Source: Candidatus Magasanikiibacteriota bacterium (GTDB lineage Bacteria; Patescibacteriota; Patescibacteriia; Magasanikbacterales; UBA922). Taken from it: DNA of 64,000 nt. This document shows positions 3,961 through 40,525 of this stretch, piece by piece. How positions within the stretch are numbered: position 1 is the stretch's first letter; each line of letters begins with the position of its first letter. Position numbers and translations under genes: made by a program. The DNA lies in NCBI GenBank assembly GCA_903837125.1, contig CAILTG010000021.1:11627-75626 (forward strand). The letters run 5' to 3'. A model generated the notes under the pieces. The model made no database searches, had not been told where the DNA came from, and saw only the letters and a list, made by a program, of their open reading frames with translations.

Positions 3961-6567
3961 TTAATTATCTTTTTGCATCACCAATCCCAATGTTTTATCA
4001 GTCTTTAACTGCCATTTAACCGAAGCTCCATTCTTTCCCAAATCCAGATCTTCATTTATACGCCAAACTGGATGCCAGCCATCAGGATAGATAATCAAAG
4101 AAGAAAAATTATCCTCTACTCCGGATTGTTTTTGCACCAACAAACTATAAGACGAAGACTGCTTACTATTTATTCCCAAAAAAATTGCCAACTGATTAAC
4201 CGACACTGTATTGTCTTTTTGCTTAATTACTTTAAAAGGTAATCTATAAGTAAAATAAACTTCTGATGTTTGCCCCGGCGGAGTGATAACCCAATTACCA
4301 AAAGCCGTTTTAGCAAATTCTTGAGTTATTCTAGTTCCAGTTTTAGCGTGAATTGCCACCTCTTTTTCTAAATTCAACAAATCAACGTCATCTTGGTAAT
4401 CTTTTTTTGGCACATAAAAAGCGTCCTCTGGAGGAAAATTAAATCCTCCAGCATCCAATAATTCTGCACCAAGTGGTACATAAATTCGTAAATAATCTAC
4501 ATTATTTACACCATAAAATAATTCCCCGGGAGTACCAGTATGATTGCGCTGGATAATTACTGTGTCAATTACCGAACCATCTTCCTGCACTACTGTTTGA
4601 TGTTCAACATTTTCTTTAATTTTAGCATCTGTTTTTTGACCATCTAAATTAGTATTTACCGCCAAAAAATAATCCTGATTATCACTATTTTTATCTAACT
4701 CACCAGTCCAACCATAAGTCCTAAATTTATTCTGCACTTCTTGATCATTAAAATAAACCTGAATTTCTTTCTGTTGCAAAGCCTCTTGTAATTCACCTAC
4801 CAAACGCACCACTTCCATTTTATCTAAATGCTTAAAATTATCCAAAAATTGCGTGGCCAAACCACCAATTACTTCCTTAGGTTTATTGGCAACTTTATCA
4901 TAATTAATTTCCACTTGATATTGAAGTTTGGCTAAAGCATTATCTGCATTTAAAGTTAAACCACTCTTTTCATCTGCCATTGGCCCCATTACTCTTAGTA
5001 GCCTCTCCAAAACAGAGGCATTAATAGCTATCACCCCGTCCACTGTGGTATTGCGGCTGTGCTGATAAAACCATTCCAATTTTTGAGCAGAAACCGCAAA
5101 ATCGGGAAACCAATTTGCATCTTGAAACTCCCAACGGCCATTAGTAAGTTGTAGTGGTAACGGAGGTTTAACATACTGATCTAACTGACCCTGTAAATCG
5201 TAACTGCCACCAGCCGGAATATTTAAATTAATTATTTTCCCCTTTATTACATCTAGAACTGCAAAACTTCCAATAAAACCACCAGTAGGACGCACTTCTG
5301 AATTATTTTGAAAAACCAAAAGATAACGTTTTAATTGATCACTACCAAAAACTGTTTGCACGGCTCCTGACAAATCTGCCATATTTTTCATGTCATTAAT
5401 AAAAGCCGCAAATAATAATCTAAAATCATTAAACGACTGCTGATATTCTACCGGAACTGTTTGAACATTTACAGCACTTAAATCTTCCAAAGCTGCTTCA
5501 TACTGCGGAATAGCACTGTGTAAATATCTGGTTAATAAATTCAAACGATCGGTTAAAACCATTTGAGTTGATTTTTGCGTTGTATCTATTCCTTGCACCA
5601 AATAAGAATTACCCAAAGCCAAATGTTGGCCAGCTATTAAAAGATGCTGTCTACTGGTAACCTGCGTACCAATTATTGGCAAAAGACCGGCCACATATTG
5701 AAGCACTGTATGTTCTTTATCCATTATTGAAGTGGCTTGATTAAAAGAATTTAAAGCTGAATTCAAATCCATTTCTGCCTGTGGAATATTTGATTGCATC
5801 GCCGCCACGGTGGAAGATTGTAAAGCCAAAAAACCACTAGTACTGGCTTCCACAATTCTGCTACTTTCATCTTTTAAACTATGATAATAAGCAATTGTGG
5901 GAAAAGGTAAACCTAATAAAATTAATAAAATCAAACTGGCGTAAACAACTTTTCTGAAATATAATTTGTTTTTAAAATCTTTTAATCTTTTAATTTCTGC
6001 TAATTTAAATAATTTTAATTTTTCCTTAAATGATTTTTTAAAATAACTAAAACGATAACTAAAATTTAATCCTGGTAACATTAATTTTGGCAAAACAAAT
6101 TTTTGTTTAGCTGATTTAGTTAATTTTTGTCTACCAAATTTTTTCTTTTGTGCTAATAAAATATTCTGCAAATCAAACTCATCATCGGCCAAGCTTAAAT
6201 CTTTAGTCTTAGTTTTTAATCCGTCATTGTGTTCCTTTACTAATTTTGCAAAATCCACCACTTTTGGTTTAAGTTTTATCTCCACCGGCGCTTCTTGATA
6301 TATTTGCACCCCTTGCCAAACATCAGCTTTTTTCTTATGGGTTAAATCTACTACATGAGGTGAATGACTATGTTTTTCTGAAAAATTGATAAGTACCGCT
6401 TTCGGAAAAACATTTTTTTTACTATTAGATAAGTTCTTTTTTGATGTTAAATTAGCAGTTTTTAAAACTTTTTGTTTAACAACACCAAAACTACACCTGG
6501 CACCATTATGCCCAGTCTTGCCACACTTTGAACAACGCCTCAATTGTATCCCTCTTTTTACAGGCAT
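3961..6567 (-). CDS. Hypothetical membrane-anchored protein with an N-terminal CxxC...H...C zinc-ribbon/knuckle motif and a large extracytoplasmic domain.
   Basis: 868-aa ORF. N terminus MPVKRGIQLRRCSKCGKTGHNGARC. Single TM helix around LILLILLGLPFPTIAYY. No known catalytic motif recognised. Confidence 0.55.
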   Translation of the reverse strand: MPVKRGIQLRRCSKCGKTGHNGARCSFGVVKQKVLKTANLTSKKNLSNSKKNVFPKAVLINFSEKHSHSPHVVDLTHKKKADVWQGVQIYQEAPVEIKLKPKVVDFAKLVKEHNDGLKTKTKDLSLADDEFDLQNILLAQKKKFGRQKLTKSAKQKFVLPKLMLPGLNFSYRFSYFKKSFKEKLKLFKLAEIKRLKDFKNKLYFRKVVYASLILLILLGLPFPTIAYYHSLKDESSRIVEASTSGFLALQSSTVAAMQSNIPQAEMDLNSALNSFNQATSIMDKEHTVLQYVAGLLPIIGTQVTSRQHLLIAGQHLALGNSYLVQGIDTTQKSTQMVLTDRLNLLTRYLHSAIPQYEAALEDLSAVNVQTVPVEYQQSFNDFRLLFAAFINDMKNMADLSGAVQTVFGSDQLKRYLLVFQNNSEVRPTGGFIGSFAVLDVIKGKIINLNIPAGGSYDLQGQLDQYVKPPLPLQLTNGRWEFQDANWFPDFAVSAQKLEWFYQHSRNTTVDGVIAINASVLERLLRVMGPMADEKSGLTLNADNALAKLQYQVEINYDKVANKPKEVIGGLATQFLDNFKHLDKMEVVRLVGELQEALQQKEIQVYFNDQEVQNKFRTYGWTGELDKNSDNQDYFLAVNTNLDGQKTDAKIKENVEHQTVVQEDGSVIDTVIIQRNHTGTPGELFYGVNNVDYLRIYVPLGAELLDAGGFNFPPEDAFYVPKKDYQDDVDLLNLEKEVAIHAKTGTRITQEFAKTAFGNWVITPPGQTSEVYFTYRLPFKVIKQKDNTVSVNQLAIFLGINSKQSSSYSLLVQKQSGVEDNFSSLIIYPDGWHPVWRINEDLDLGKNGASVKWQLKTDKTLGLVMQKDN

Positions 6568-6739: not shown

Positions 6740-7936
6740 TTATCTTAATGTTCTTTCATGATTTGGCTCAACTTCTTTAGCTTGTTTTTCTAATATTTTT
6801 GACTCTCTAATTATTTCCCCTTTACTTTCACCACGTAAATTATGTTTAAGTAACTCTTTTATTTCCAAAGGATCACGTGTTCTGCTTAACACGTAATATA
6901 ATTTCATCAAGGCTTGTCTAAACCTCATCATTGATTCCGGTTTACACCATTCCGAACTAGGTGCATCTTTACGACGATTATAAAATACTACGGCATTATC
7001 TGAACGATTATCCTCTATTAATTTAAACAACTCACTTTCTCTTTCCACGTCTCTGTCAAAAATTAAAATTACATCTGCGTATCTCACAATATCTGCGGAT
7101 AACGGAGTTGCTATTCCGATCGGTAAAATTTTCAACCCTTCTTCCAATTTATGAAAATTTAAACTAGGCTCACCACTTGACAATAAACTTTTTTCATCTA
7201 AGATAATTTCACACTCTAATTTAAAATCAGTACTTAAACCATATTCTTCCACACTACTTTCATCTTCTCCGTGCCTAATTCTGCCAATTACTTCCTGTTG
7301 CTCTGGCTCATAAAAAGCATCTCGTTGCTGTGCATTATATTTGTGTGAATTATTTCCACGAATAATTCTTCCATAAAAACACAACACCACTTCTGGGATC
7401 AATGGAACTTCAAATCCTGAACGCCCAGCAAGATGTACTGCATCTACTAAATTTCTTGGTCCGTCAGACCCTTTTTTATCATTAACTTTTTCAATTCTAT
7501 AATTTTTTATTTCACCAGCGTTTTTTTCTCTTTCTCTATCAATAGCCGGATCCATTGAACCAGTAAACACCACTGGTTTATTTAAACCATCTAACATATA
7601 AGAAAGAGAACCTGCTGCATCCTCCATAGTATCTGTTCCATAAACTACTACAAAACCATCATATTTTTCGTAATTTTCTTTAATCCTTTGCCCCACCATA
7701 TTAAATGTCTCTAGACGAGCTTGAGAAGAATCAATAAAAACTTCCTTACCAGTGTTTTCATCTTTAGATTTTAATTCCTGCCATTCAATATCATAAGGCA
7801 ATTGGTCTACTTCTGGAATATTTTTTCTTAAATTCTCTAAAGAATCAGGTGTTAAACCACCACCATCTTTTCTCTTCATACCAATAGTTCCACCAGTATA
7901 AATAATCAAAATTTTTCTTGCTGAGGGCTCTTTCAT
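6740..7936 (-). CDS. L-asparaginase family protein (type I asparaginase / GatD-like)
   Basis: N-terminal ILIIYTGGTIGM (asparaginase threonine motif) and VVVYGTDTMEDAA (second signature). 398 aa, with a C-terminal extension. Confidence 0.7.
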   Translation of the reverse strand: MKEPSARKILIIYTGGTIGMKRKDGGGLTPDSLENLRKNIPEVDQLPYDIEWQELKSKDENTGKEVFIDSSQARLETFNMVGQRIKENYEKYDGFVVVYGTDTMEDAAGSLSYMLDGLNKPVVFTGSMDPAIDREREKNAGEIKNYRIEKVNDKKGSDGPRNLVDAVHLAGRSGFEVPLIPEVVLCFYGRIIRGNNSHKYNAQQRDAFYEPEQQEVIGRIRHGEDESSVEEYGLSTDFKLECEIILDEKSLLSSGEPSLNFHKLEEGLKILPIGIATPLSADIVRYADVILIFDRDVERESELFKLIEDNRSDNAVVFYNRRKDAPSSEWCKPESMMRFRQALMKLYYVLSRTRDPLEIKELLKHNLRGESKGEIIRESKILEKQAKEVEPNHERTLR

Positions 7937-10163: not shown

Positions 10164-11432
10164 CTATACGCCTGAGTTAATAATTTTTATAAATTCCACT
10201 GCCAATTTCTCACACCCAAACTCCTCTATTCTCTTCTTTCCTCTCTCAACTAACACACCTCGCAACTTCTCATCTGACAATATTTTTTTAATTGCTTCGG
10301 CCAGTTCATCAACATTGTGTGGATTAATTAAATATCCAGCCTCACCAACCACTTCTGGTAATGATGAACGACTGGAAGTAATAACTGGTACACCACTGAC
10401 CATCGCCTCTAAAACTGGCAAACCAAAACCTTCATACAAACTTATAAAAACAAACAAACTACTCAACTTATACAAAGTTGGTTTATCTCTTTCGTCAACA
10501 TAACCAATATATCTAACACCTGATGTTTCTTTTATCAACTGCATTAATTTTTTATTCTTCCAACCTTTACCACCAGCAATTACAAGTTCATATTTCTGAG
10601 TTCTGAGTTCTGAGTTACAAAAAGCTTCTATTATTGTTTGAACATTTTTTCTAGGTTCAAGGGTTCCTAAATACAAAATGTACTTTTCTGGTAGACCATA
10701 CCTTTGTTTTACTTGATTTCTACTATCTGAGTTCTGAGTCATGATAAAAGGCAGCCCAGGCCTCAACACTTGCAATTTGCTTTCTGCTATCTGATATCTG
10801 TCTATCACATCGCGTTTAGTATTCTCCGATGGCGTAATTATTACATTCGCTCGCTGACATTGACGTTGCGGATTTAAAAACTTGTGCCACAATCTTTGTT
10901 TCCAAGTAAAACAATCCGGCAAAAATTCAAAAGACAAGTCATGAATGGTTTGAATGTGTCTAACATTTTTTGATAAATTTATAAAACTTAAATTTGGCGA
11001 AAACCAGGTATCAATTCCTCTGTCATTGCGAGGAAACCGATTCGCATCGGCTGACGAAGCAATCTCAGGCAACCTGTAATCTTTAGATAACGACGACGTG
11101 AGATTGCTTCGTCGTCGCGCGAGCTCCTCCTCGCAATGACATAATTTATCTAGTTTAATTATTCTAAGCCAAACTAACAAATTGAGTAATTTATTCGGCC
11201 ATCTAGTATACACATAATGCACATTTTCTTGCTTCCACTGCGGAATATTTTTTGAAACATCAGCCCAAGAATTATAAAACAAAAAATATTGGTTCGCATC
11301 AAGGCAATTATTCAGCTGTTTAAATCTGTCTAAATCAATGCCAAAAATAGTATTAAGCATTCCAAAAGTATACTCCCCAACGCCAGTACGATTTTTATCC
11401 ATTAAACAACGGATATCAACCCCAATATTCAT
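10164..11432 (-). CDS. Glycosyltransferase family 4 carrying in-frame repeat and palindromic-element insertions
   Basis: EGFGLPVLEAMVSGVPVITSSRSSLPEVVGEAGY motif. Contains (TCTGAGT)x3 at 10595-10615 and x2 at 10726-10739. Also contains the 121-bp GC-rich palindromic element at 11021-11141, translated in frame. Confidence 0.8.
   Translation of the reverse strand: MNIGVDIRCLMDKNRTGVGEYTFGMLNTIFGIDLDRFKQLNNCLDANQYFLFYNSWADVSKNIPQWKQENVHYVYTRWPNKLLNLLVWLRIIKLDKLCHCEEELARRRSNLTSSLSKDYRLPEIASSADANRFPRNDRGIDTWFSPNLSFINLSKNVRHIQTIHDLSFEFLPDCFTWKQRLWHKFLNPQRQCQRANVIITPSENTKRDVIDRYQIAESKLQVLRPGLPFIMTQNSDSRNQVKQRYGLPEKYILYLGTLEPRKNVQTIIEAFCNSELRTQKYELVIAGGKGWKNKKLMQLIKETSGVRYIGYVDERDKPTLYKLSSLFVFISLYEGFGLPVLEAMVSGVPVITSSRSSLPEVVGEAGYLINPHNVDELAEAIKKILSDEKLRGVLVERGKKRIEEFGCEKLAVEFIKIINSGV
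10595..10615. repeat. Heptanucleotide tandem repeat (TCTGAGT)x3 in frame in the GT4 CDS; a second copy (x2) lies at 10726-10739.
   Basis: tctgagttctgagttctgagt, read directly. Encodes NSELRTQ on the minus strand. Confidence 0.9.
11021..11141. repeat. GC-rich nested palindromic element (RPE-like) inserted in frame in the GT4 gene
   Basis: Outer 14-bp inverted repeat tgtcattgcgagga (11021-11034) / tcctcgcaatgaca (11128-11141). Inner 15-bp inverted repeat gacgaagcaatctca (11053-11067) / tgagattgcttcgtc (11098-11112). Locally GC-rich in an AT-rich gene. Translated as ...CHCEEELARRRSNLTSSLSKDYRLPEIASSADANRFPRNDRG... Confidence 0.8.
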
Positions 11433-11440
11433 ACATTATT

Positions 11441-12568
11441 TTATTTTATTTCTAACTCGCACTGATTCAATCCCTTTCTAAACTCCTCATAATGATCTTC
11501 CACAAATTTTTTGATTTTGTCTTTAAAATTGATTACGCTAAATTTTAGTGCATGTTCGCGAATTTTGACACTGTCCCAATTTTCATAATTAAAATTAAGT
11601 AAAGTATCTAATAGTGATTCCCAACTCTGATCTTTAAAATAAACCCCTGTCTCACCATGAATTACTGTTTCCGTTACTCCACCAACCGGATAAGCAATCA
11701 CCGGCCGGCCGGCCGCCATGGCCTCCACCGGAGTAATACCAAAATCCTCAACCTGAGGATGAATAAACGCTCTGGCATGACTCATCAACTCTGCCTTTTC
11801 CTGGTCCGTAACTCGTCCCAAAAATTCAATATTAGGTCTGGCACCTCTTTTTAAATCCTCCCACCAACCCGGTCCGGTGCCAAAAATTTTTAGCGGCCAA
11901 CCCAAACGATTAAAAACTTTTATTATCAAATCAAATCTCTTGTAAGCTGCAATTCTTCCACCAGCCAAAAAATAATCCCCCACTTCTGGTGAAATTTTAT
12001 ATTGTTCCACATCCACCGGCGGATAAATTACCTGCGCATCTCGCCGATAATATTTATGGATACGACTTTTTACCGTGTATGAATTGGCTAAAAAATGATC
12101 TACTCGATCCACGCTCATTTGATCCCACATACGCAAACGATGAATCAAAGACGGTATAAAAGATTTTATTAAACGATTATACTTTAATTCTTCTAAATAT
12201 TCATGGGTATCTGTCCAAAGATATCTGGTAGGCGTATGGCAATAAGAAATATGCAAAGTATTTGGTCTAGTTAACACTCCCTTAGCAAACGCTGAAGTTG
12301 AGGACAAAACCACGTCAAAATCATGAAGATTATATCTTTCAGTTGCCAGAGGTATCCAAGGCAAATACCACTGATAGTGATTTTTGTTAAATGGCAACTT
12401 AGAAATAAAAGATTGTCTGACATCCGCATCTGCAAAATCTTTTATTTTCTTAGTATCATAAAATAAAACAAAAATAGGCGCTTCCGGCCAAATTTCATGA
12501 AAAGCTTTTAACACTCTTTCCGCCCCCCCGTCTTGCGAAAGATAATCATGGACTAAAGCAATACGCAT
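11441..12568 (-). CDS. Glycosyltransferase family 4
   Basis: N terminus MRIALVHDYLSQDGGAERV and C-terminal GITPVEAMAAGRPVIAYPVGGVTETV motif. Confidence 0.8.
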   Translation of the reverse strand: MRIALVHDYLSQDGGAERVLKAFHEIWPEAPIFVLFYDTKKIKDFADADVRQSFISKLPFNKNHYQWYLPWIPLATERYNLHDFDVVLSSTSAFAKGVLTRPNTLHISYCHTPTRYLWTDTHEYLEELKYNRLIKSFIPSLIHRLRMWDQMSVDRVDHFLANSYTVKSRIHKYYRRDAQVIYPPVDVEQYKISPEVGDYFLAGGRIAAYKRFDLIIKVFNRLGWPLKIFGTGPGWWEDLKRGARPNIEFLGRVTDQEKAELMSHARAFIHPQVEDFGITPVEAMAAGRPVIAYPVGGVTETVIHGETGVYFKDQSWESLLDTLLNFNYENWDSVKIREHALKFSVINFKDKIKKFVEDHYEEFRKGLNQCELEIK

Positions 12569-12583
12569 AAATATAATCCGAAT

Positions 12584-14002
12584 TTATAAAGCACCTCGTT
12601 TTTTTAAAACTACAAATGGTGTTTTTATGAAAATAATTAAATCCTGAAACAAACTCCATTTTTCTATATAAAACACATCCAGTTTAACTTCATCTTCAAA
12701 AGATAAATCGCTACGACCAGAAATTTGGCTCATTCCAGTAATACCTGGCTTTAGAGTTAACACCTTTTTATGATGTTTTTCATATTTATCTACTTCACGA
12801 GGCTGATGTGGTCTGGGGCCAACAATACTCATATCCCCTGCCAGAACATTAAAAAACTGTGGCAATTCATCTAAACTCCAACGACGAATAAACCGTCCAA
12901 AAGACGTAACCCGTGGATCATTGGCAATTTTATAAACAGGACCTTCTTTAATACTATTAGTTTTAATAAGTTTCTTTTCTTTTTCCTCGTTTTTTATACC
13001 CTCGTTACCAAATTGCACTCCCGTAGAATCCTTTTGATACATGGAACGAAATTTATAAGTTAGAAACTTTAGACCGCGAATACCCACACGCTCATTTTTG
13101 TAAATTACCGGTCTGCCAGTTTCAATCAAAATAATTATGGTCACAACTAGCATTATTGGCGAAGTAATAATAATTACCAACAAACTCATGACAATATCAA
13201 ACAATCTCTTAGAGACTCGGCCCCAACCTTCCAACGGAGTCTTTCCCAATTCCATAATCGGCACCCCGGCCAAAGCCGAAACCGACATATTAATACTGTA
13301 AGTAGAAAATAAATCAGCTGAATATTTAAAAACTTTATGATGTTCATCACAATAATCAATCGCTGCCAAAGTCTCTTCCTCATTGGCCCGCGGATTCACA
13401 AAAATAAATTCATCAATATTAATTTTATCCAATTCCTTAGCCACTCCAGAATTAAAACTTAAAAACTCAGCCACAACTTGGTAACCTAATTCTTTTCTCT
13501 TTCGCAAAACTGCCACCACATTTTTAGCAATCTCTTCTTTGCCAATTACCACTACCCGACGTAATCCTATACCGAAACGATAAAGCAACCCTTTAATTCC
13601 CCGCATTAAAATTCTCTCCAATCCCACATAAACAATAGCAAAAACAAAACCCACAGCCACCAAAAAACGTGAATCAAATTGCTGTAAAAAAAACATTACA
13701 TATAAAGCAATCGCTCCCAAACCCGTGGAACAAGCCAAAACCACTCTTGTTAATTCTCTGGATAACTTACGGTTAGGATTAATGGAATACAAGCCAGAAA
13801 TGGCAAAAATCAGAAGCCAAGCCAAAGCGACTAAGCTGGCAATATTTAAAAAACTAAGCAATGTTAATTTAAAAATGACTGGCCTGGTTAACACCACAAA
13901 ACTGGCAAAACGCAAATAATAAGCTGAAATACCTGCCAAAAGCAACATCAAAAAATCAAGTGGCACTTGTAAAACCATGAATATTATTTCTGAACGTTTC
14001 AT
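12584..14002 (-). CDS. Undecaprenyl-phosphate sugar phosphotransferase (bacterial sugar transferase, WbaP/WcaJ/EpsL family), the priming enzyme
   Basis: Multi-TM N terminus. C-terminal domain RLFDIVMSLLVII...PVIYKNERVG..G..F..YKFRSM...DELPQFFNVLAGDMSIVGPRP. Confidence 0.85.
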   Translation of the reverse strand: MKRSEIIFMVLQVPLDFLMLLLAGISAYYLRFASFVVLTRPVIFKLTLLSFLNIASLVALAWLLIFAISGLYSINPNRKLSRELTRVVLACSTGLGAIALYVMFFLQQFDSRFLVAVGFVFAIVYVGLERILMRGIKGLLYRFGIGLRRVVVIGKEEIAKNVVAVLRKRKELGYQVVAEFLSFNSGVAKELDKINIDEFIFVNPRANEEETLAAIDYCDEHHKVFKYSADLFSTYSINMSVSALAGVPIMELGKTPLEGWGRVSKRLFDIVMSLLVIIITSPIMLVVTIIILIETGRPVIYKNERVGIRGLKFLTYKFRSMYQKDSTGVQFGNEGIKNEEKEKKLIKTNSIKEGPVYKIANDPRVTSFGRFIRRWSLDELPQFFNVLAGDMSIVGPRPHQPREVDKYEKHHKKVLTLKPGITGMSQISGRSDLSFEDEVKLDVFYIEKWSLFQDLIIFIKTPFVVLKKRGAL

Positions 14003-14167: not shown

Positions 14168-14600
14168 TCTTATCTATTGTAGATGATCGCCTGCCGATGA
14201 GGCAGGAGGAAAGTCCGAACTCTATCCATTAATTTGGAAATGGTAGTGGGTAACACCCACCAGCACTTTAGAGATAAAGTGTTCGGGATAGCGCCACAGA
14301 GACAATACTACCCCGCAAAATGCGGGGGAAAGGTGAAAAGTGTATGGGGGTTTTGGTTCTAGATCAAAGCTACTATACTCCTCTAATAGTAATATTGGAG
14401 TGCGGCAAGCCCTACCTGGAGAAAGAGCAGCGCCCCGCAGTTTGCGGGGCGAAAAGTTAGCTCGTTAGAATCTATTGGCAACAATAGATCTAGATAAATG
14501 ATCGTCGCCCACAAATCACAACACCAATCGACACTAATTAGTGAAGATTAGTGAAAATAATAGTGGACACAAAATTCGGCTTATAACAATAGGTGAGACA
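14168..14600 (+). ncRNA. rnpB: RNase P RNA (bacterial type A), with a ~55-nt insertion containing ATTAGTG repeats near the 3' end
   Basis: P3 hairpin CCTGCC-GATGA-GGCAGG. CR-I GAGGAAAGTCCGAAC. P8/9 GGTAGTGGGTAACACCCACC. J11/12 CGCCACAGAGACAAT. P12 CCCCGCAAAATGCGGGGG. GGTGAAAAG. P18 ATCTATTG-GCAA-CAATAGAT followed by CTAGATAAATGA. CR-V ACAAAATTCGGCTTATAAC, whose TTCGGCTT pairs with AAGTCCGAA to form P4. P1/P2 5' tcttatctattgt pairs with 3' acaataggtgaga. Followed by an A/T hairpin terminator. Confidence 0.85.
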
Positions 14601-32268: not shown

Positions 32269-34980
32269 CTAATAAAAAATATTAAGCTGTTGCTTCAGTT
32301 TTTCCAATTTTTCTTTGGCCTCAACTAATTTTTTCTTTTCTGCCTCCACTACCTGTACAGGCGCATTATTTACAAATTCTTTATTGCTTAATTTTTTCTC
32401 TAAACCAATAGCATACGGTTCAACACTAGTTATTTCTTTTTGTAATCTAACCTTTTCTGCTTCCGCATCTACAGCACCTGCCAAATCCACAAAAACTTCC
32501 ACACCGCTAACCACAAAACCCACACTTGTTTCAGGCTTCTTAATTTTAGTCTTAATCTCAATCTTTTCTAATCTCGCCAATCCTTTTATTATTTCGACAT
32601 TATCTTTTAACAATTCAACATTTTCTCCAGCACTAATAGTTGCATTTAGTTTTTTCACTGGTTCAATTTTATTTTCAGCCCGAAGTGAACGAAGGCCAGT
32701 GATAATATTTTTTATTAGTTCAAATTCTTCATTTATTTTAATCTCAATCTTAGTCTTAATCTCAATCATAGGCCATTTTTCAACCATCAACATTCTTTCG
32801 TTTCCATAAATTTCACTCCAAATCTGTTCTGTTACAAATGGCATAAAAGGATGCCACAACTTCAACAAAGCATTTAAAATATAATTCAAAATTTCGGATT
32901 TACCACCCTCTATTTTGGCAACTTCTAAATACCAATCTGCCAAATCACTCCAAGTAAAATCACGAAGTGCCTCACCAGCTTGTGAAAAATTAAACTTTTC
33001 AATATTATCAGTAACTTGTTTTGTAACATTCAGCAACCGATTCAAAATCCATTTATCTGCAAGAGTTTCCAATTCTGGAATTTTAACATCAATTTTTGAT
33101 TCCGGAATATTCAGCAACATAAAACGAGAAATATTCCACAATTTATTTACAAAATTTCTGGCACTATCAATTTTTTCATCATAAAACTTAGAATCATTCC
33201 CTGGGCTAATCCCAAGTAAAACGCTAATGCGCAAAGCATCTGCTCCATATTCTTCAATTACCTCAAGTGGATCAATATTATTCCCAGCTGATTTAGAAAA
33301 CTTTTTTCCTTCTTCATTTCGGAGCATTCCATGGATATACACATCTTTAAATGGTATTTGATCTAAAGCGTAAGTTGACATTAAAATCATTCTGGCCATC
33401 CAAAAAAAGACAATTTCATAACCCATTTGCATCCAACTTGTTGGGTGAAACTGTTCTAGATCATTTTTGAACTCGGGTTTACCCGCCACAATCTCGCCAG
33501 AGCCGGGCTTGCCCGGCGTAGCCCTAGCGAAGCCGGGCCAGCCTAAAGTAGAAAACGTCCAAGTACCAGAAGAAAACCAAGTATCCAGAGTATCAGCATC
33601 TTGCAACCATCCCTCACCTGTTGGTTCTTCAATACCACAATAAATTTCTTCACCTTTATACCAAACCGGAATCCGATGACCCCACCAAATTTGGCGACTG
33701 ATACACCAATCGCGCAAATTTTCAATCCAACCAAAATATATTTTTTCAAAACGTTCAGGCGTAATATTAACTTTTTGATCTGAAATACCATTATGTCCCA
33801 AAGTCACAGCTTCTTTCATTAATTCTTTAAGACTTTTTTCCTTTCCTGAAACTTTTTTATTTACGTCAATAAACCACTGCGTCATTGGCAAGGCTTCTAC
33901 AATATCACCAAACCTATCTGAAGTACCAACATTCTGAAGAATGTCTTCTTCTTTTTCTAATAAATCATTTTCTCTTAACCATCTGGACACCTCTTCCCTA
34001 GCTTTTTCAGCTAAAAGACCTTGATAAAGATTCGATGCTTTATCAGTCATTTTGCCGTTCTTGTCAATTACTTCAATTAAATTTATTGGATCGTTTTTCG
34101 CTTTTTGATTTAAATACATTTCAAAGTCAACCATACTGTGTGCTGGAGTTACACCAACAGCACCTGTACCAAATTCCGTAACTACTTTTTCATCGGCAAT
34201 AATTTTAATTTCTAAATTAGGGCCGCCTGCAAATTTTTCAATATTAAAAACTTTTCCAATGTACTTTTTGTACCTTTTATCATGCGGATTTACTGCTACA
34301 GCGGTATCTCCTAATTTTGTTTCCGGTCGCGTGGTAGCAATAGTAATTGGAAAATCTTTAGAATATTTAAAATAGTATAACTTTGATGGACGTTCAACAT
34401 GAACTAACTCATCATCAGAACAAGTAGATTGGCCTTTTACTGACCAATTTACAACTCGATGCCCGTGATATATCAATCCATCATCATACATTTTTTTAAA
34501 AACAGTTTTTACTGCTAAATTCCTTTGCTCATCAAAGGTATAAGCCAAACGACTCCAATCACAACTAGTGCCTAACTTCTTTATTTGTCTTAAAATTGTG
34601 GCTTTTGAATTTTCTGCATATTCTCTAATTAACTCTAAAAGTTTTTCACGCCCATAAAATTCACGAGGTTTTTCAATTCCCTTTTTTACCAGTTCTTTTT
34701 CAACTTTAGCTTGCGTAGCAACTGCCGCGTGATCTGTACCTGGTAATAACAATACTTTTTTGCCATTCATTCTCTGATAACGCGCCATGGTATCCATTAA
34801 ACTATTTTCCATTGCATGACCTAAATGCAAAACACCAGTCACATTTGGTGGCGGCATCATAATAGAATATGGTTCACCAGTAAGATTATCTGGATTAAAA
34901 AAACCACTTGTCTCCCAACGCTCATAAATTGCATCTTCGTATTTTTGTGGTTCGTAAGCTTTTGGCAATTCTTTACTCAT
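32269..34980 (-). CDS. valS: Valyl-tRNA synthetase
   Basis: PPPNVTGVLHLGHAMENSLMD (HIGH), KFSKSAGN (KMSKS), editing domain, C-terminal coiled coil. The likely start is MSKELPKAYEP at 34980; the ORF track extends to 35016. Carries the in-frame GC-rich insert at 33478-33545 and heptamer-repeat segments encoding IEIKTKIEIK. Confidence 0.92.
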   Translation of the reverse strand: MSKELPKAYEPQKYEDAIYERWETSGFFNPDNLTGEPYSIMMPPPNVTGVLHLGHAMENSLMDTMARYQRMNGKKVLLLPGTDHAAVATQAKVEKELVKKGIEKPREFYGREKLLELIREYAENSKATILRQIKKLGTSCDWSRLAYTFDEQRNLAVKTVFKKMYDDGLIYHGHRVVNWSVKGQSTCSDDELVHVERPSKLYYFKYSKDFPITIATTRPETKLGDTAVAVNPHDKRYKKYIGKVFNIEKFAGGPNLEIKIIADEKVVTEFGTGAVGVTPAHSMVDFEMYLNQKAKNDPINLIEVIDKNGKMTDKASNLYQGLLAEKAREEVSRWLRENDLLEKEEDILQNVGTSDRFGDIVEALPMTQWFIDVNKKVSGKEKSLKELMKEAVTLGHNGISDQKVNITPERFEKIYFGWIENLRDWCISRQIWWGHRIPVWYKGEEIYCGIEEPTGEGWLQDADTLDTWFSSGTWTFSTLGWPGFARATPGKPGSGEIVAGKPEFKNDLEQFHPTSWMQMGYEIVFFWMARMILMSTYALDQIPFKDVYIHGMLRNEEGKKFSKSAGNNIDPLEVIEEYGADALRISVLLGISPGNDSKFYDEKIDSARNFVNKLWNISRFMLLNIPESKIDVKIPELETLADKWILNRLLNVTKQVTDNIEKFNFSQAGEALRDFTWSDLADWYLEVAKIEGGKSEILNYILNALLKLWHPFMPFVTEQIWSEIYGNERMLMVEKWPMIEIKTKIEIKINEEFELIKNIITGLRSLRAENKIEPVKKLNATISAGENVELLKDNVEIIKGLARLEKIEIKTKIKKPETSVGFVVSGVEVFVDLAGAVDAEAEKVRLQKEITSVEPYAIGLEKKLSNKEFVNNAPVQVVEAEKKKLVEAKEKLEKLKQQLNIFY
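32740..32767. repeat. Heptamer-periodic repeat (AATCTCA / ATCTTAG / TCTTAAT ...) in frame in valS. Related arrays occur at 32547-32575, 40611-40640 and 41561-41586.
   Basis: aatctcaatcttagtcttaatctcaatc encodes IEIKTKIEIK on the minus strand. The same gtcttagtcttaat motif lies just 3' of yidC and at the nusA 3' end. Confidence 0.8.
33478..33545. repeat. GC-rich palindrome-containing in-frame insertion in valS
   Basis: acccgccacaatctcgccagagccgggcttgcccggcgtagccctagcgaagccgggccagcc, with inverted repeat gccgggc tt gcccggc. Encodes GFARATPGKPGSGEIVAGKPEF, inserted between the conserved TLGWP and FHPTS blocks of ValS. Confidence 0.7.
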
Positions 34981-35219
34981 AAAATATATAACATGAAACA
35001 GGTAACAAATTGTCATGTGCTACAGGTTATCTGCTATAGGTTACCTGGTATAGATTACCTCAATAATCCAAATTAATCAAGTAATTATCTAAACATAGCA
35101 GAAAAGTCTTTATAAAATGTCACTCTTATCAAAACTTCTTTTAATGGCTTAAACAAGCCAAAATTAATGACCGGTCAAAATCTTCTAAATTAAGCCAAAA
35201 AATGCCCACAGCCCAGAGT

Positions 35220-39744: not shown

Positions 39745-39789
39745 TTGACAAAATGGCTAAAATGGACTAAAATGTACTGTTATCAGTAC
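39745..39789 (+). promoter_or_regulatory. Consensus sigma70 promoter (TTGACA, 17 nt spacer, TAAAAT) plus a 16-bp perfect palindromic operator GTACTGTTATCAGTAC at the predicted transcription start of the GC-island gene.
   Basis: cTTGACAaaatggctaaaatggacTAAAATgtactgttatcagtac. Three direct repeats CTAAAATG(G) overlap the spacer. An AGGAG RBS lies 7 nt upstream of the ATG at 39826. Confidence 0.6.
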
Positions 39790-40525
39790 ACTGTGTGCTG
39801 GTAAATCCACCTGATAGGAGAGACCATGGTTGTCTTTAACGCGTTGGTTCTGATCATCGTGTTTCTCTTTACCGTCATGGGCGGCTACTGGCTCGTGGTC
39901 AAGGGGATCATGGGCTACCCCACAGCTGCCATCGCCATCGGGGTCGCGCTGATCCTGTTCTGGGGCATTCGGCGTCTCGTGCGCCGGTTCCCCTGGTGGG
40001 CCGTGAACATTCAGTTCCTGCGGCACACGGCGGATACCAAACGGTACCGAATCGAGGCAGTCACGACCACCAAAAGACGTGGCTACTATGTCATGATGGT
40101 CGTCCTGAAACGAGAAAGCGATTCCCGGCGGATCAAGGTACGCTGGAACTCGTTGCCCTCGGCCGAAACGGTGGGAGGCCCCAAAAGGGCCGAACTCCGG
40201 GAGGGTGGATCGTTCACCCTCAAATTCGACGAGACGAAGATGATCAAAGGGCTGTTCGGTAGGCCCATCGGTTACCGAGTGGTCATGAGCGACTACTACG
40301 AACCGCCGGCGGCCGTCTGATCCCACCTCCAATGAAAAGCCTCCCCCGTCTCCTCTTCATGGCGGACAAAGGCTAGAGAGGATCCTCATCCTCTCCGTGT
40401 CTCAGCGAGCTCTGAGCCATGTATTCTTACCCTCGTTCTTTTCCATCGTTCTTTTCCTGAGGTCTCAAATGACTCAGGGACCGCCACTCGCAATGAGCTG
40501 ACGGAGTTCCCCTTTGACTTTTAAC
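39790..40525. mobile_element. GC-rich (~60% GC by eye) ~0.75 kb foreign island inserted between the gpmI paralog and yidC; horizontally acquired cassette of unknown mobility.
   Basis: Abrupt change in base composition at both edges. Own promoter, operator, RBS and terminator. No integrase or inverted terminal repeats recognised. Confidence 0.55.
39826..40320 (+). CDS. Small membrane protein (2 N-terminal TM helices plus a basic beta-rich domain, possibly bacterial PH-like/bPH_2) encoded on the GC-rich island
   Basis: MVVFNALVLIIVFLFTVMGGYWLVVKGIMGYPTAAIAIGVALILFWGIRRLVRRFPWW... with a good RBS, promoter and terminator. The antisense 191-aa ORF is judged a GC-rich shadow. Confidence 0.55.
   Translation: MVVFNALVLIIVFLFTVMGGYWLVVKGIMGYPTAAIAIGVALILFWGIRRLVRRFPWWAVNIQFLRHTADTKRYRIEAVTTTKRRGYYVMMVVLKRESDSRRIKVRWNSLPSAETVGGPKRAELREGGSFTLKFDETKMIKGLFGRPIGYRVVMSDYYEPPAAV

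Follow-up and report, generated by a model that had tools for sequence, protein, structure and literature searches.

An in-frame GC-rich insertion in a Magasanikbacteria valS gene: probable tandem copies of a dispersed, REP-like stem-loop repeat

Short palindromic repeats that lie inside protein-coding genes have been described in several bacteria, and they are the background for the element that we report here, a GC-rich stem-loop repeat within valS, the gene of valyl-tRNA synthetase (ValRS), in 64 kb of contig CAILTG010000021.1 from a Candidatus Magasanikiibacteriota bacterium (the whole stretch that was analyzed, 64,000 nucleotides, is called the window below). The closest match in kind to the valS element is found in the repetitive extragenic palindromic sequences (REPs), including those that are intragenic. 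Tagged REPs (GTAG/CGTC) are 20–40 bp long and form sub-families with compensatory changes; in O. terrae and R. conorii some of their copies lie within repair genes (Di Nocera et al., 2013; PMC3733652). The Rickettsia palindromic elements (RPEs), in the summary of Ogata et al. (2000) that is contained in PMC10969869, comprise several families of ~100–150 bp which encode ~30–50 residues and belong to Rickettsia only. MITEs, the miniature inverted-repeat transposable elements, are non-autonomous and usually ~50–500 bp in size, with terminal inverted repeats derived from insertion sequences (IS) and a target duplication of fixed length (PMC10969869). Another group, the palindromic amphipathic repeat coding elements (PARCELs), is described in PMC2996958 as palindromic coding repeats that were spread horizontally among very distant microbes.

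Based on the evidence given below, we estimate at about 0.8 the probability that the valS stretch is a tandem pair from a dispersed REP-like stem-loop repeat family, in which one copy is intact and the other has decayed. The minus-strand translation of valS reads ...FSTLGWP-GFARATPGKPGSGEIVAGKP-EFKNDLEQ-FHPTS. A first-pass annotation, made from the sequence alone, had pointed to a GC-rich, palindrome-bearing in-frame stretch at this place, and its sequence, frame, GC content and perfect palindrome were all recovered by our analysis. The insertion therefore stands, but the limits first given to it (33478–33545) take in the conserved G-W-P codons, and the net gain is the 60 nt listed in Table 1. 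The GC content of the insert is 0.65–0.67 in 60-nt windows compared to 0.35 for valS, in a window with 34.5% GC overall, and its 50-nt peak reaches 0.76, where the 99.9th percentile of the window is 0.70. Scored for codon usage, the 20 inserted codons rank among the lowest 0.13% of 17,210 20-codon windows taken from the long open reading frames (ORFs) of the window, and the insert uses codons that are rare in the genome (CCC 0.06, TTC 0.08, ACG 0.10 and GCG 0.11). The GC content at third codon positions (GC3) of the whole linker between the two conserved blocks, insert included, is 0.62 versus 0.25 for valS. The insert is compositionally foreign to its host genome.

The comparison with orthologs gives the same picture. 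Our ortholog set is made of the 120 closest ValRS sequences, and the large majority of them have a linker of only eight residues between the TLGWP and FHPTS blocks. Thermus thermophilus ValRS (1GAX) also has an eight-residue linker, and its HMMER alignment splits exactly at the insert, so the extra length that was noted at first is borne out; in this comparison the Thermus sequence and the orthologs from the candidate phyla radiation take the place of the E. coli enzyme that was named originally. An insert common to the orthologs, at a like codon composition, had been named beforehand as the result that would speak against an insertion. What we found is that it is missing from several of the nearest orthologs (at ~68% identity; P0002, P0004 and others), that the carriers are scattered over the ValRS tree and that their inserts are GC-rich in AT-rich genes.

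Copy 1 matches the profile of 121 family copies from end to end (model positions 2–33, E = 3.3e-7 in nhmmer), and the Pro codon of the TLGWP block doubles as the first three bases of this match. Its stem carries one variant, a G:C pair at -5:+12 in place of the usual C:G, which is a compensated change. This flip is rare; it was found compensated also in a peptidase U32 gene of another Magasanikbacteria genome, and uncompensated at the same valS site of a related genome. Copy 2 is arranged head-to-tail with copy 1 at a period of 30 nt. Of its 32 positions, 21 agree with the family consensus, best of all at the two ends, and the copy was called from this 66% identity together with its register, at a score below the nhmmer threshold. 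Tandem arrays with a period of 30 or 33 nt are also found at two other loci (L045 and L074). The perfect palindrome, which was first taken as the repeat, is indeed present, but it is the junction of the dimer and not its unit: the right arm and tail of copy 1 abut the complementary left arm of copy 2, whilst the unit is 30–32 nt. This 16-nt palindrome is single in the window, where 0.11 matches are expected even with three mismatches allowed.

The family to which copy 1 belongs has the consensus YCCGCCTTC-GCYRARGC-TWC-GGCGGR-CAAGC(C), an imperfect palindrome of 31–32 nt with sharp ends. It contains a 6-bp stem (YCCGCC/GGCGGR), a 3x3 internal loop (TTC/TWC), a 3-bp apical stem (GCY/RGC) closed by a 2-nt loop, and an unpaired 3' tail, CAAGC(C). 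The search for the family used a 22-nt degenerate pattern that covers the right half of the element and matched at least 120 genome contigs, compared to a chance expectation of ~9 (an estimate for uniform base composition), as well as 21 contigs of the viral set. In the alignment of the 121 copies, the nine upstream bases outside the pattern, CCGCCTTC, are mostly 80–98% conserved and the information content is zero in the flanks on both sides. The matches listed come from more than 12 phyla, at a locus GC of 0.31–0.71, and their hosts include Patescibacteria (many classes), Planctomycetota, Verrucomicrobiota/Kiritimatiellia/Lentisphaeria, Acidobacteriota, Bacteroidota, Alpha-, Gamma- and Deltaproteobacteria, Myxococcota, Nitrospirota, Chloroflexota, Armatimonadota, Dependentiae, Bdellovibrionota and Actinomycetota. 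Several matches are located on contigs of 200 kb to 1.5 Mb. One phage contig of 68% GC (L130, IMG/VR contig 3300045935_000065), which encodes a portal protein (PF12236), has five copies within 13 kb. Covariation is seen at two of the paired positions. At -9:+16, 67 copies have C:G, 38 have T:A and 16 have other combinations (Fisher p = 8e-18); at +2:+5, 73 copies have C:G and 39 have T:A (p = 1e-21). Since all eight combinations of the three variable sites are present, the copies do not represent two clonal lineages. The conserved unpaired bases, TTC/TWC and CAAGC, suggest that the element may be recognized by a protein. In the literature text we found no paper with such an element, either by 11-nt stretches or by the translated peptides, and nothing relevant on palindromic in-frame insertions in Patescibacteria turned up. 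A 12-nt identity between the reverse strand of the element and a conserved 16S rRNA segment (TGGCGAAGGCGG) does not extend further, and we treat it as chance.

By this architecture the element resembles REPs in many ways. Both are stem-loop palindromes within 20–40 bp, in which tri-nucleotides that do not pair separate the stem from a small GC-flanked loop, and both end in a conserved unpaired tail; both have sub-families that differ by compensatory stem changes, and both occur as singles, dimers and clusters. REP copies are known in replication and repair genes (uvrA and uvrB), and the valS element is found in UvrA, UvrC and RecJ. Yet the tail of our element is CAAGC(C) and not a terminal GTAG or CGTC, and the G(T/A)AG of its other strand lies inside the hairpin. 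The valS dimer is head-to-tail, an arrangement that is rare in REPs (PMC3733652). Moreover, one sequence family of the valS element extends across many phyla, and a motif screen of the flanking DNA for REP-associated tyrosine transposases (RAYTs) gave no convincing candidate. The intragenic REP families of O. terrae were considered as a possible identity and rejected, as their listed peptides (VGPALAAG and GTGVPPV) are unrelated to those of the valS element.

The first-pass annotation had read the stretch as RPE-like, and this holds as an analogy. Both are palindromic repeats that sit in frame within unrelated housekeeping genes of a small AT-rich genome, where they are translated and seem compatible with the fold and function of the host protein. 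The core of that proposal, the in-frame insertion of a palindromic repeat element, is upheld by the profile match (E = 3e-7), the other housekeeping hosts and the foreign composition. Membership in the RPE family is not: the unit is 30–32 nt (10 residues) and not ~100–150 bp, its range covers phages and more than 12 phyla, it has no sequence similarity to RPEs, and its host is not Rickettsia, since the best ValRS relatives after the identical protein P0001 belong to Candidatus Magasanikbacteria and other Patescibacteria at ~68% identity. MITEs share with our element the inverted-repeat structure, the short flanking duplications and the occasional in-frame fusion to host ORFs. However, the whole valS element is a 31-nt hairpin with no known parent IS, and its flanking repeats are variable (2–11 nt): its arms are inverted repeats and CCN is found at both ends in the three filled and empty gene pairs described below, whereas elsewhere the flanking repeats measure 0–11 nt. 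PARCELs are units of ~100 nt that build tandem repeat proteins, mostly on the surface, whereas the valS element is found as single 30-nt inserts in housekeeping enzymes. The GC clusters of yeast mitochondria, and the 'byp' elements among them, are GC-rich palindromic mobile inserts of ~30–50 nt in very AT-rich genomes, some of them in coding genes; byps are organellar, break the reading frame and are skipped by the ribosome. In contrast, the valS insert is stop-free and in frame, and ordinary translation suffices.

The site in valS deserves attention on its own. Extra loop residues are present in 26 of the 120 orthologs (~22%), all at the Trp|Pro junction: 18 have peptides like ASAKATAGKP, DSAKATPGKP or SFTKASNGKP, five are of the unrelated SPLPPFAKGG type and three are of other types. 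On a neighbor-joining (NJ) tree that was built without the loop, and is a rough guide for the deep lineages of the candidate phyla radiation (CPR), each carrier has near relatives with the plain linker. The likeness of these peptides is a likeness of DNA, because the ortholog loci carry near-identical DNA at the same site: GCTAAGGCTACGCCGGGCAAGCC in L004, with similar sequences in L003 and L005. The window and these three loci have in common ...CC-GCYARRGCTACGSCGGRYAARCC, in AT-rich genes whose proteins are only ~60–68% identical. In three pairs of filled and empty genes (90, 87 and 81% protein identity) there is an exact gain of 30 nt after TGG CCN, with CCN at both ends, and in one filled/empty pair a 9-nt deletion adjoins the gain. 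Because these pairs show 30-nt gains, we read the 60 nt of the window as two 30-nt units. Older copies (L152, L006 and L001) have drifted mostly towards A/T and have lost most of the peptide other than GKP, but are still in frame. Other orthologs have element-type peptides at other ValRS loops, such as SSSAKASEDK, SAKATSGKLS and KPPFAKATED. The recurrent use of TGG|CCN may reflect both a preference for CC and the small number of ValRS loops that tolerate extra residues.

Other insertions are found in the same enzyme. In other CPR lineages (P0028, P0045, P0058, P0069 and P0097) the same Trp|Pro loop holds a GC-rich palindromic element of a second, unrelated kind, again as a 30-nt gain, with the DNA TCCCCCCTACCCCCCTTTGCTAAAGGGGGC and the peptide SPLPPFAKGG (in L007 at ~11440–11470). 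At this site P0074 has a domain of 123 residues. Another variable loop follows residues 442–445 of P0001 and contains peptides encoded by simple repeats (IFNFQFSIFNE and KSKVKSQKSKV), Zn-ribbon-like CPxCG motifs and whole domains, among them an insert of ~146 residues in P0045, which recurs at the TLGWP loop of P0074, and, in P0051 and P0058, a histidine-phosphatase domain (PF00300).

To the enzyme, the insert probably adds no more than a flexible surface loop of 20 residues. The precomputed Pfam domains of P0001 are tRNA-synt_1, Anticodon_1 and Val_tRNA-synt_C, and in the valS translation the catalytic motifs of the HIGH type (HLGH) and of the KMSKS type (KFSKS) are intact. The AlphaFold2 model, based on an 80-sequence alignment, has a mean predicted local distance difference test (pLDDT) score of 86.4 and a predicted template modeling (pTM) score of 0.79. 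Its sole segment with a pLDDT below 50 is made of P0001 residues 484–503, which show no secondary structure and lie between a helix that ends at 478 and a helix that starts at 505. In this model the insert is a predicted disordered loop that separates two conserved blocks within the catalytic domain. We infer that it is a tolerated passenger in a permissive loop and not a functional ValRS module. The opposite view would be that a lineage-specific loop was born in place, by slippage or duplication, for the sake of protein function, its GC content being a product of Gly, Ala, Pro and Arg codons. The richness of the peptide in G, A, P and K, the internal 30-nt duplication and the large domain insertions tolerated here (P0074) would all fit such an origin. 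We nevertheless consider it very improbable: the third codon positions of the insert-containing linker are GC-rich too, the same DNA is found in unrelated genes, in non-coding DNA, in other frames and across phyla, and the peptide, which is predicted to be disordered, is not conserved among the ValRS carriers apart from the terminal GKP.

The copies of the family are found in various surroundings. In loci with less than 50% GC about half of them are within ORFs of 120 codons or more (16 in sense and nine in antisense orientation), and the orientation of the intergenic copies relative to neighboring genes follows no obvious rule. Ten host ORFs were checked and are bona fide: RecJ, peptidase U32, the methionyl- and cysteinyl-tRNA synthetases (MetRS and CysRS), ThyA, two family 4 (GT4) glycosyltransferases, a DNA-alkylation repair protein, a thiamine pyrophosphate (TPP) enzyme and UvrA. 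In MetRS the copy again stands directly after LGWP. Locus L005 has a second copy within uvrC and L004 a weaker match within argS, the arginyl-tRNA synthetase (ArgRS) gene. These loci show 2–3 copies per 20 kb; in general the copies cluster locally, with more than one copy in 20 of the 144 match-bearing loci. The encoded peptide is rich in Gly, Ala, Pro and Lys and has the form x-[FS]-A-[KRE]-A-[ST]-x-G-K-P, the dominant frame in long ORFs being x-A-K-A-x-A-G-K-P. We considered whether the element is in general stop-free in all six frames, and rejected this: the commonest variant alone has that property, and in the others, the copy in the window among them, one forward frame and/or one reverse frame is closed by stops.

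Direct repeats of at least 5 nt flank 22 of 142 copies, compared to ~3 expected, and their length is variable (5–11 nt). Tandem repeats of 7–9 nt that are specific to the locus (for example AAAAGTC, CTCAACT and AATATTC) embed or border many copies in several phyla, often partly on both sides (L017, L032, L039, L054, L070, L099, L114, L118, L120, L136 and L141). Three copies adjoin tRNA-Pro genes (L043 at 1734–1912, L079 at 7557–7656 and L121 at 4590–4722). In L043 the element occupies the spacer between tRNA-Pro and tRNA-Gly and begins on the CC of the tRNA 3' end, and in L079 the overlap is between its left arm and the 5' end of the tRNA (CCCG).

Another possibility is that selection maintains the hairpin in valS as a cis-acting signal at the RNA or DNA level, for example a translational pause, an mRNA stabilizer or a protein-binding site. 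The covariation of the stem would be expected of such a signal, the same loop is filled in many ValRS lineages, and the fold is stable: in ViennaRNA the consensus RNA reaches -14.2 kcal/mol and a single structure makes up 96% of the ensemble, the hairpin being paired as described and the 3' tail free, and the 76-nt valS context folds at -35 kcal/mol. Yet these energies are not exceptional when compared to dinucleotide shuffles (z of -0.8 to -2.0), and the Rfam 15 covariance models gave nothing relevant for the valS region (E up to 10) or for eight element-bearing loci (E up to 0.1). In addition, coding copies are found in both orientations, resident copies decay in sequence, several of the closest orthologs have no insert and the carriers are scattered. 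We therefore regard a cis-acting role as improbable.

How would such an element move? In valS the element landed at the Trp|Pro codon junction (TGG|CCN) in 30-nt units, by which the reading frame was kept. In the mechanism that we favor, its folded single-stranded hairpin, with the conserved unpaired bases and the tail, would be recognized by an enzyme that acts in trans, and joining would take place at a CC dinucleotide. By analogy with REPs, which RAYT/HUH transposases are believed to recognize, a trans-acting, hairpin-specific enzyme may be the mover. We favor this because a hairpin with a tail is also the design of REPs and of HUH-mobilized elements at their ends, but only tentatively, at somewhat less than even odds. 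As a possible guide for insertion we also considered pairing of the 3' tail with the upstream flank, as seen in valS (GGCT with AGCC), and rejected it as a general rule, since the mean complementarity is 1.3–1.5 of 6 at every offset.

Several results weigh against a mobile, dispersed repeat of this kind. The first-pass annotation had proposed a search for further copies, and the window holds no second copy of the 16-mer and, by the family profile, none of the element elsewhere, although copies were found in other genomes; there is one locus only, which does not attest to multiple copies in this genome. A crude motif screen for HUH/Y1 (RAYT) proteins among 3,728 ORFs in 1.1 Mb of flanking DNA gave three weak candidates, none of them convincing, where it should be noted that dispersed copies need not adjoin a transposase gene. 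With respect to GC skew, the copies show no preference for either strand (66:59, not significant), which argues against a choice of the lagging-strand template in the style of IS200/IS605. The near-identity of 31 nt across phyla is unlike the species-specific pairs of REPs and RAYTs and is unexplained here. Finally, 119 of the 120 genome matches listed (the titles of L008–L127) are from metagenome-assembled genomes (MAGs) or uncultured organisms, and in 7.3 Gb of plasmids from cultured hosts there is no full copy, the BLAST search with the consensus giving partial, chance-level matches on GC-rich replicons. The only cultured strain among the matches listed is Paracoccus sediminis (L103), whose match does not have the conserved TTC of the left arm and is, judging by its sequence, probably due to chance. 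These results give no example from a cultured strain, although assemblies of long reads and of short reads both contain the element.

This bias towards MAGs, together with the MAG-type contig of the window and the lack of a full copy in plasmids of cultured hosts, could raise the suspicion of an assembly or sequencing artifact. We give this hardly any credence. The insert keeps the frame exactly and comes in units of 30 nt, mutational decay is graded at the same site in independent assemblies, and the contig names are of the MEGAHIT, SPAdes and IDBA styles and also include long contigs (contig_N and tig) that we take as long-read; neither the covariation nor the sharp ends would be expected from an artifact.

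A rival that concerns the mobilization step only is that the element spreads without an enzyme of its own, by microhomology-mediated template switching or gap repair that copies another copy, possibly on incoming foreign DNA; the hairpin would stall replication and a CC or CCC microhomology would set the junctions. The junctions of the three filled/empty pairs have only 2–3 nt (CCN) in common, and in two of the three copies beside tRNA-Pro genes the ends of the element overlap the CC or CCCG of the host. The variable flanking repeats, which often continue into the 7–9-nt tandem arrays, the local clusters and partial tandem units, the absence of a transposase candidate nearby and a distribution that is independent of host phylum also point in this direction. 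However, the boundaries of the element are very sharp, the strict conservation of TTC/TWC and CAAGC across phyla points to protein recognition, and template switching does not explain the dispersal to unlinked loci and to other phyla. We judge this route as unlikely, though it is the main alternative to an enzyme that acts in trans.

A wider and rather doubtful proposal is that the family is an undescribed pan-bacterial mobile element, among the smallest known and common to CPR bacteria, many other phyla and phages, which inserts at CC in 30-nt quanta and does not depend on a lineage-specific transposase. If this is true, the mover would be a widely conserved or phage-borne enzyme, or a route of host replication and repair, and the element would repeatedly remodel the same surface loops of essential enzymes, such as the class-I aminoacyl-tRNA synthetases. 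In-frame palindromic inserts in housekeeping genes were previously known mainly from Rickettsia and a few REP-rich species; they are now found in CPR bacteria, with a sequence that crosses phyla, and this raises the question of what moves the element. The repeated occupation of one Trp|Pro junction offers a natural experiment in which the choice of the site can be set against structural tolerance. For annotation, the 20 extra ValRS residues, like the peptides of the AKATAGKP, LRRAS and SLGEGG types that many MAG proteins contain, are repeat DNA in translation and no features of the enzymes, and such translated repeats can mislead alignments, domain boundaries and the calling of small ORFs.

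Table 1. Coordinates of the valS gene, its conserved blocks and the inserted element in the window
Feature	Position	Strand	Remarks
valS ORF	32269–35016	minus	915 codons; P0001 (903 aa) is 100% identical
Codons of conserved block T-L-G-W-P	33535–33549	minus	Pro codon CCC at 33535–33537
Net in-frame insertion, 60 nt	33475–33534	minus	GFARATPGKP + GSGEIVAGKP (2 x 30 nt); from ortholog linker lengths, GC and codon usage
Native 8-residue linker EFKNDLEQ	33451–33474	minus	from orthologs and 1GAX
Conserved block FHPTS	33436–33450	minus	
Element copy 1, intact	33506–33537	minus	CCCGGCTTC-GCTAGGGC-TAC-GCCGGG-CAAGCC
Element copy 2, decayed	33476–33507	minus	CCCGGCTCTGGCGAGATTGTGGCGGGTAAACC
Perfect palindrome	33502–33517		GCCGGGC-tt-GCCCGGC (7+2+7); junction of the two copies

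The 5' end of the valS ORF (34981–35016) consists of 12 codons (MTICYLFHVIYF) upstream of the start that is used for the identical protein P0001. Because P0001 has 903 amino acids, we take the ATG at ~34980 as the probable start, and the upstream ATG is probably not the true one.

Three other GC-rich features were seen in the window. The first is a second palindrome-bearing in-frame stretch at 11085–11141 on the minus strand, inside an ORF for a GT4 glycosyltransferase (10164–11432), with the DNA TGTCATTGCGAGGAGGAGCTCGCGCGACGACGAAGCAATCTC and the peptide CHCEEELARRRSNL (a CHCEE...RRSNL element); a partial inverted copy, GAGATTGCTTCGTC, is located ~35 nt downstream, and the family differs from that of the valS element. 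The second is an intergenic GC-rich hairpin at 14389–14465, GCGCCCCGCAGTTTGCGGGGCG, which lies downstream of the ORF at 12584–14002 and looks like a terminator. The third is an island of ~550–650 bp with ~60% GC between the iPGM gene and yidC (39757–40410), which contains overlapping ORFs (164 aa on the plus strand and 191 aa on the minus strand) with no Pfam match and may be foreign DNA.

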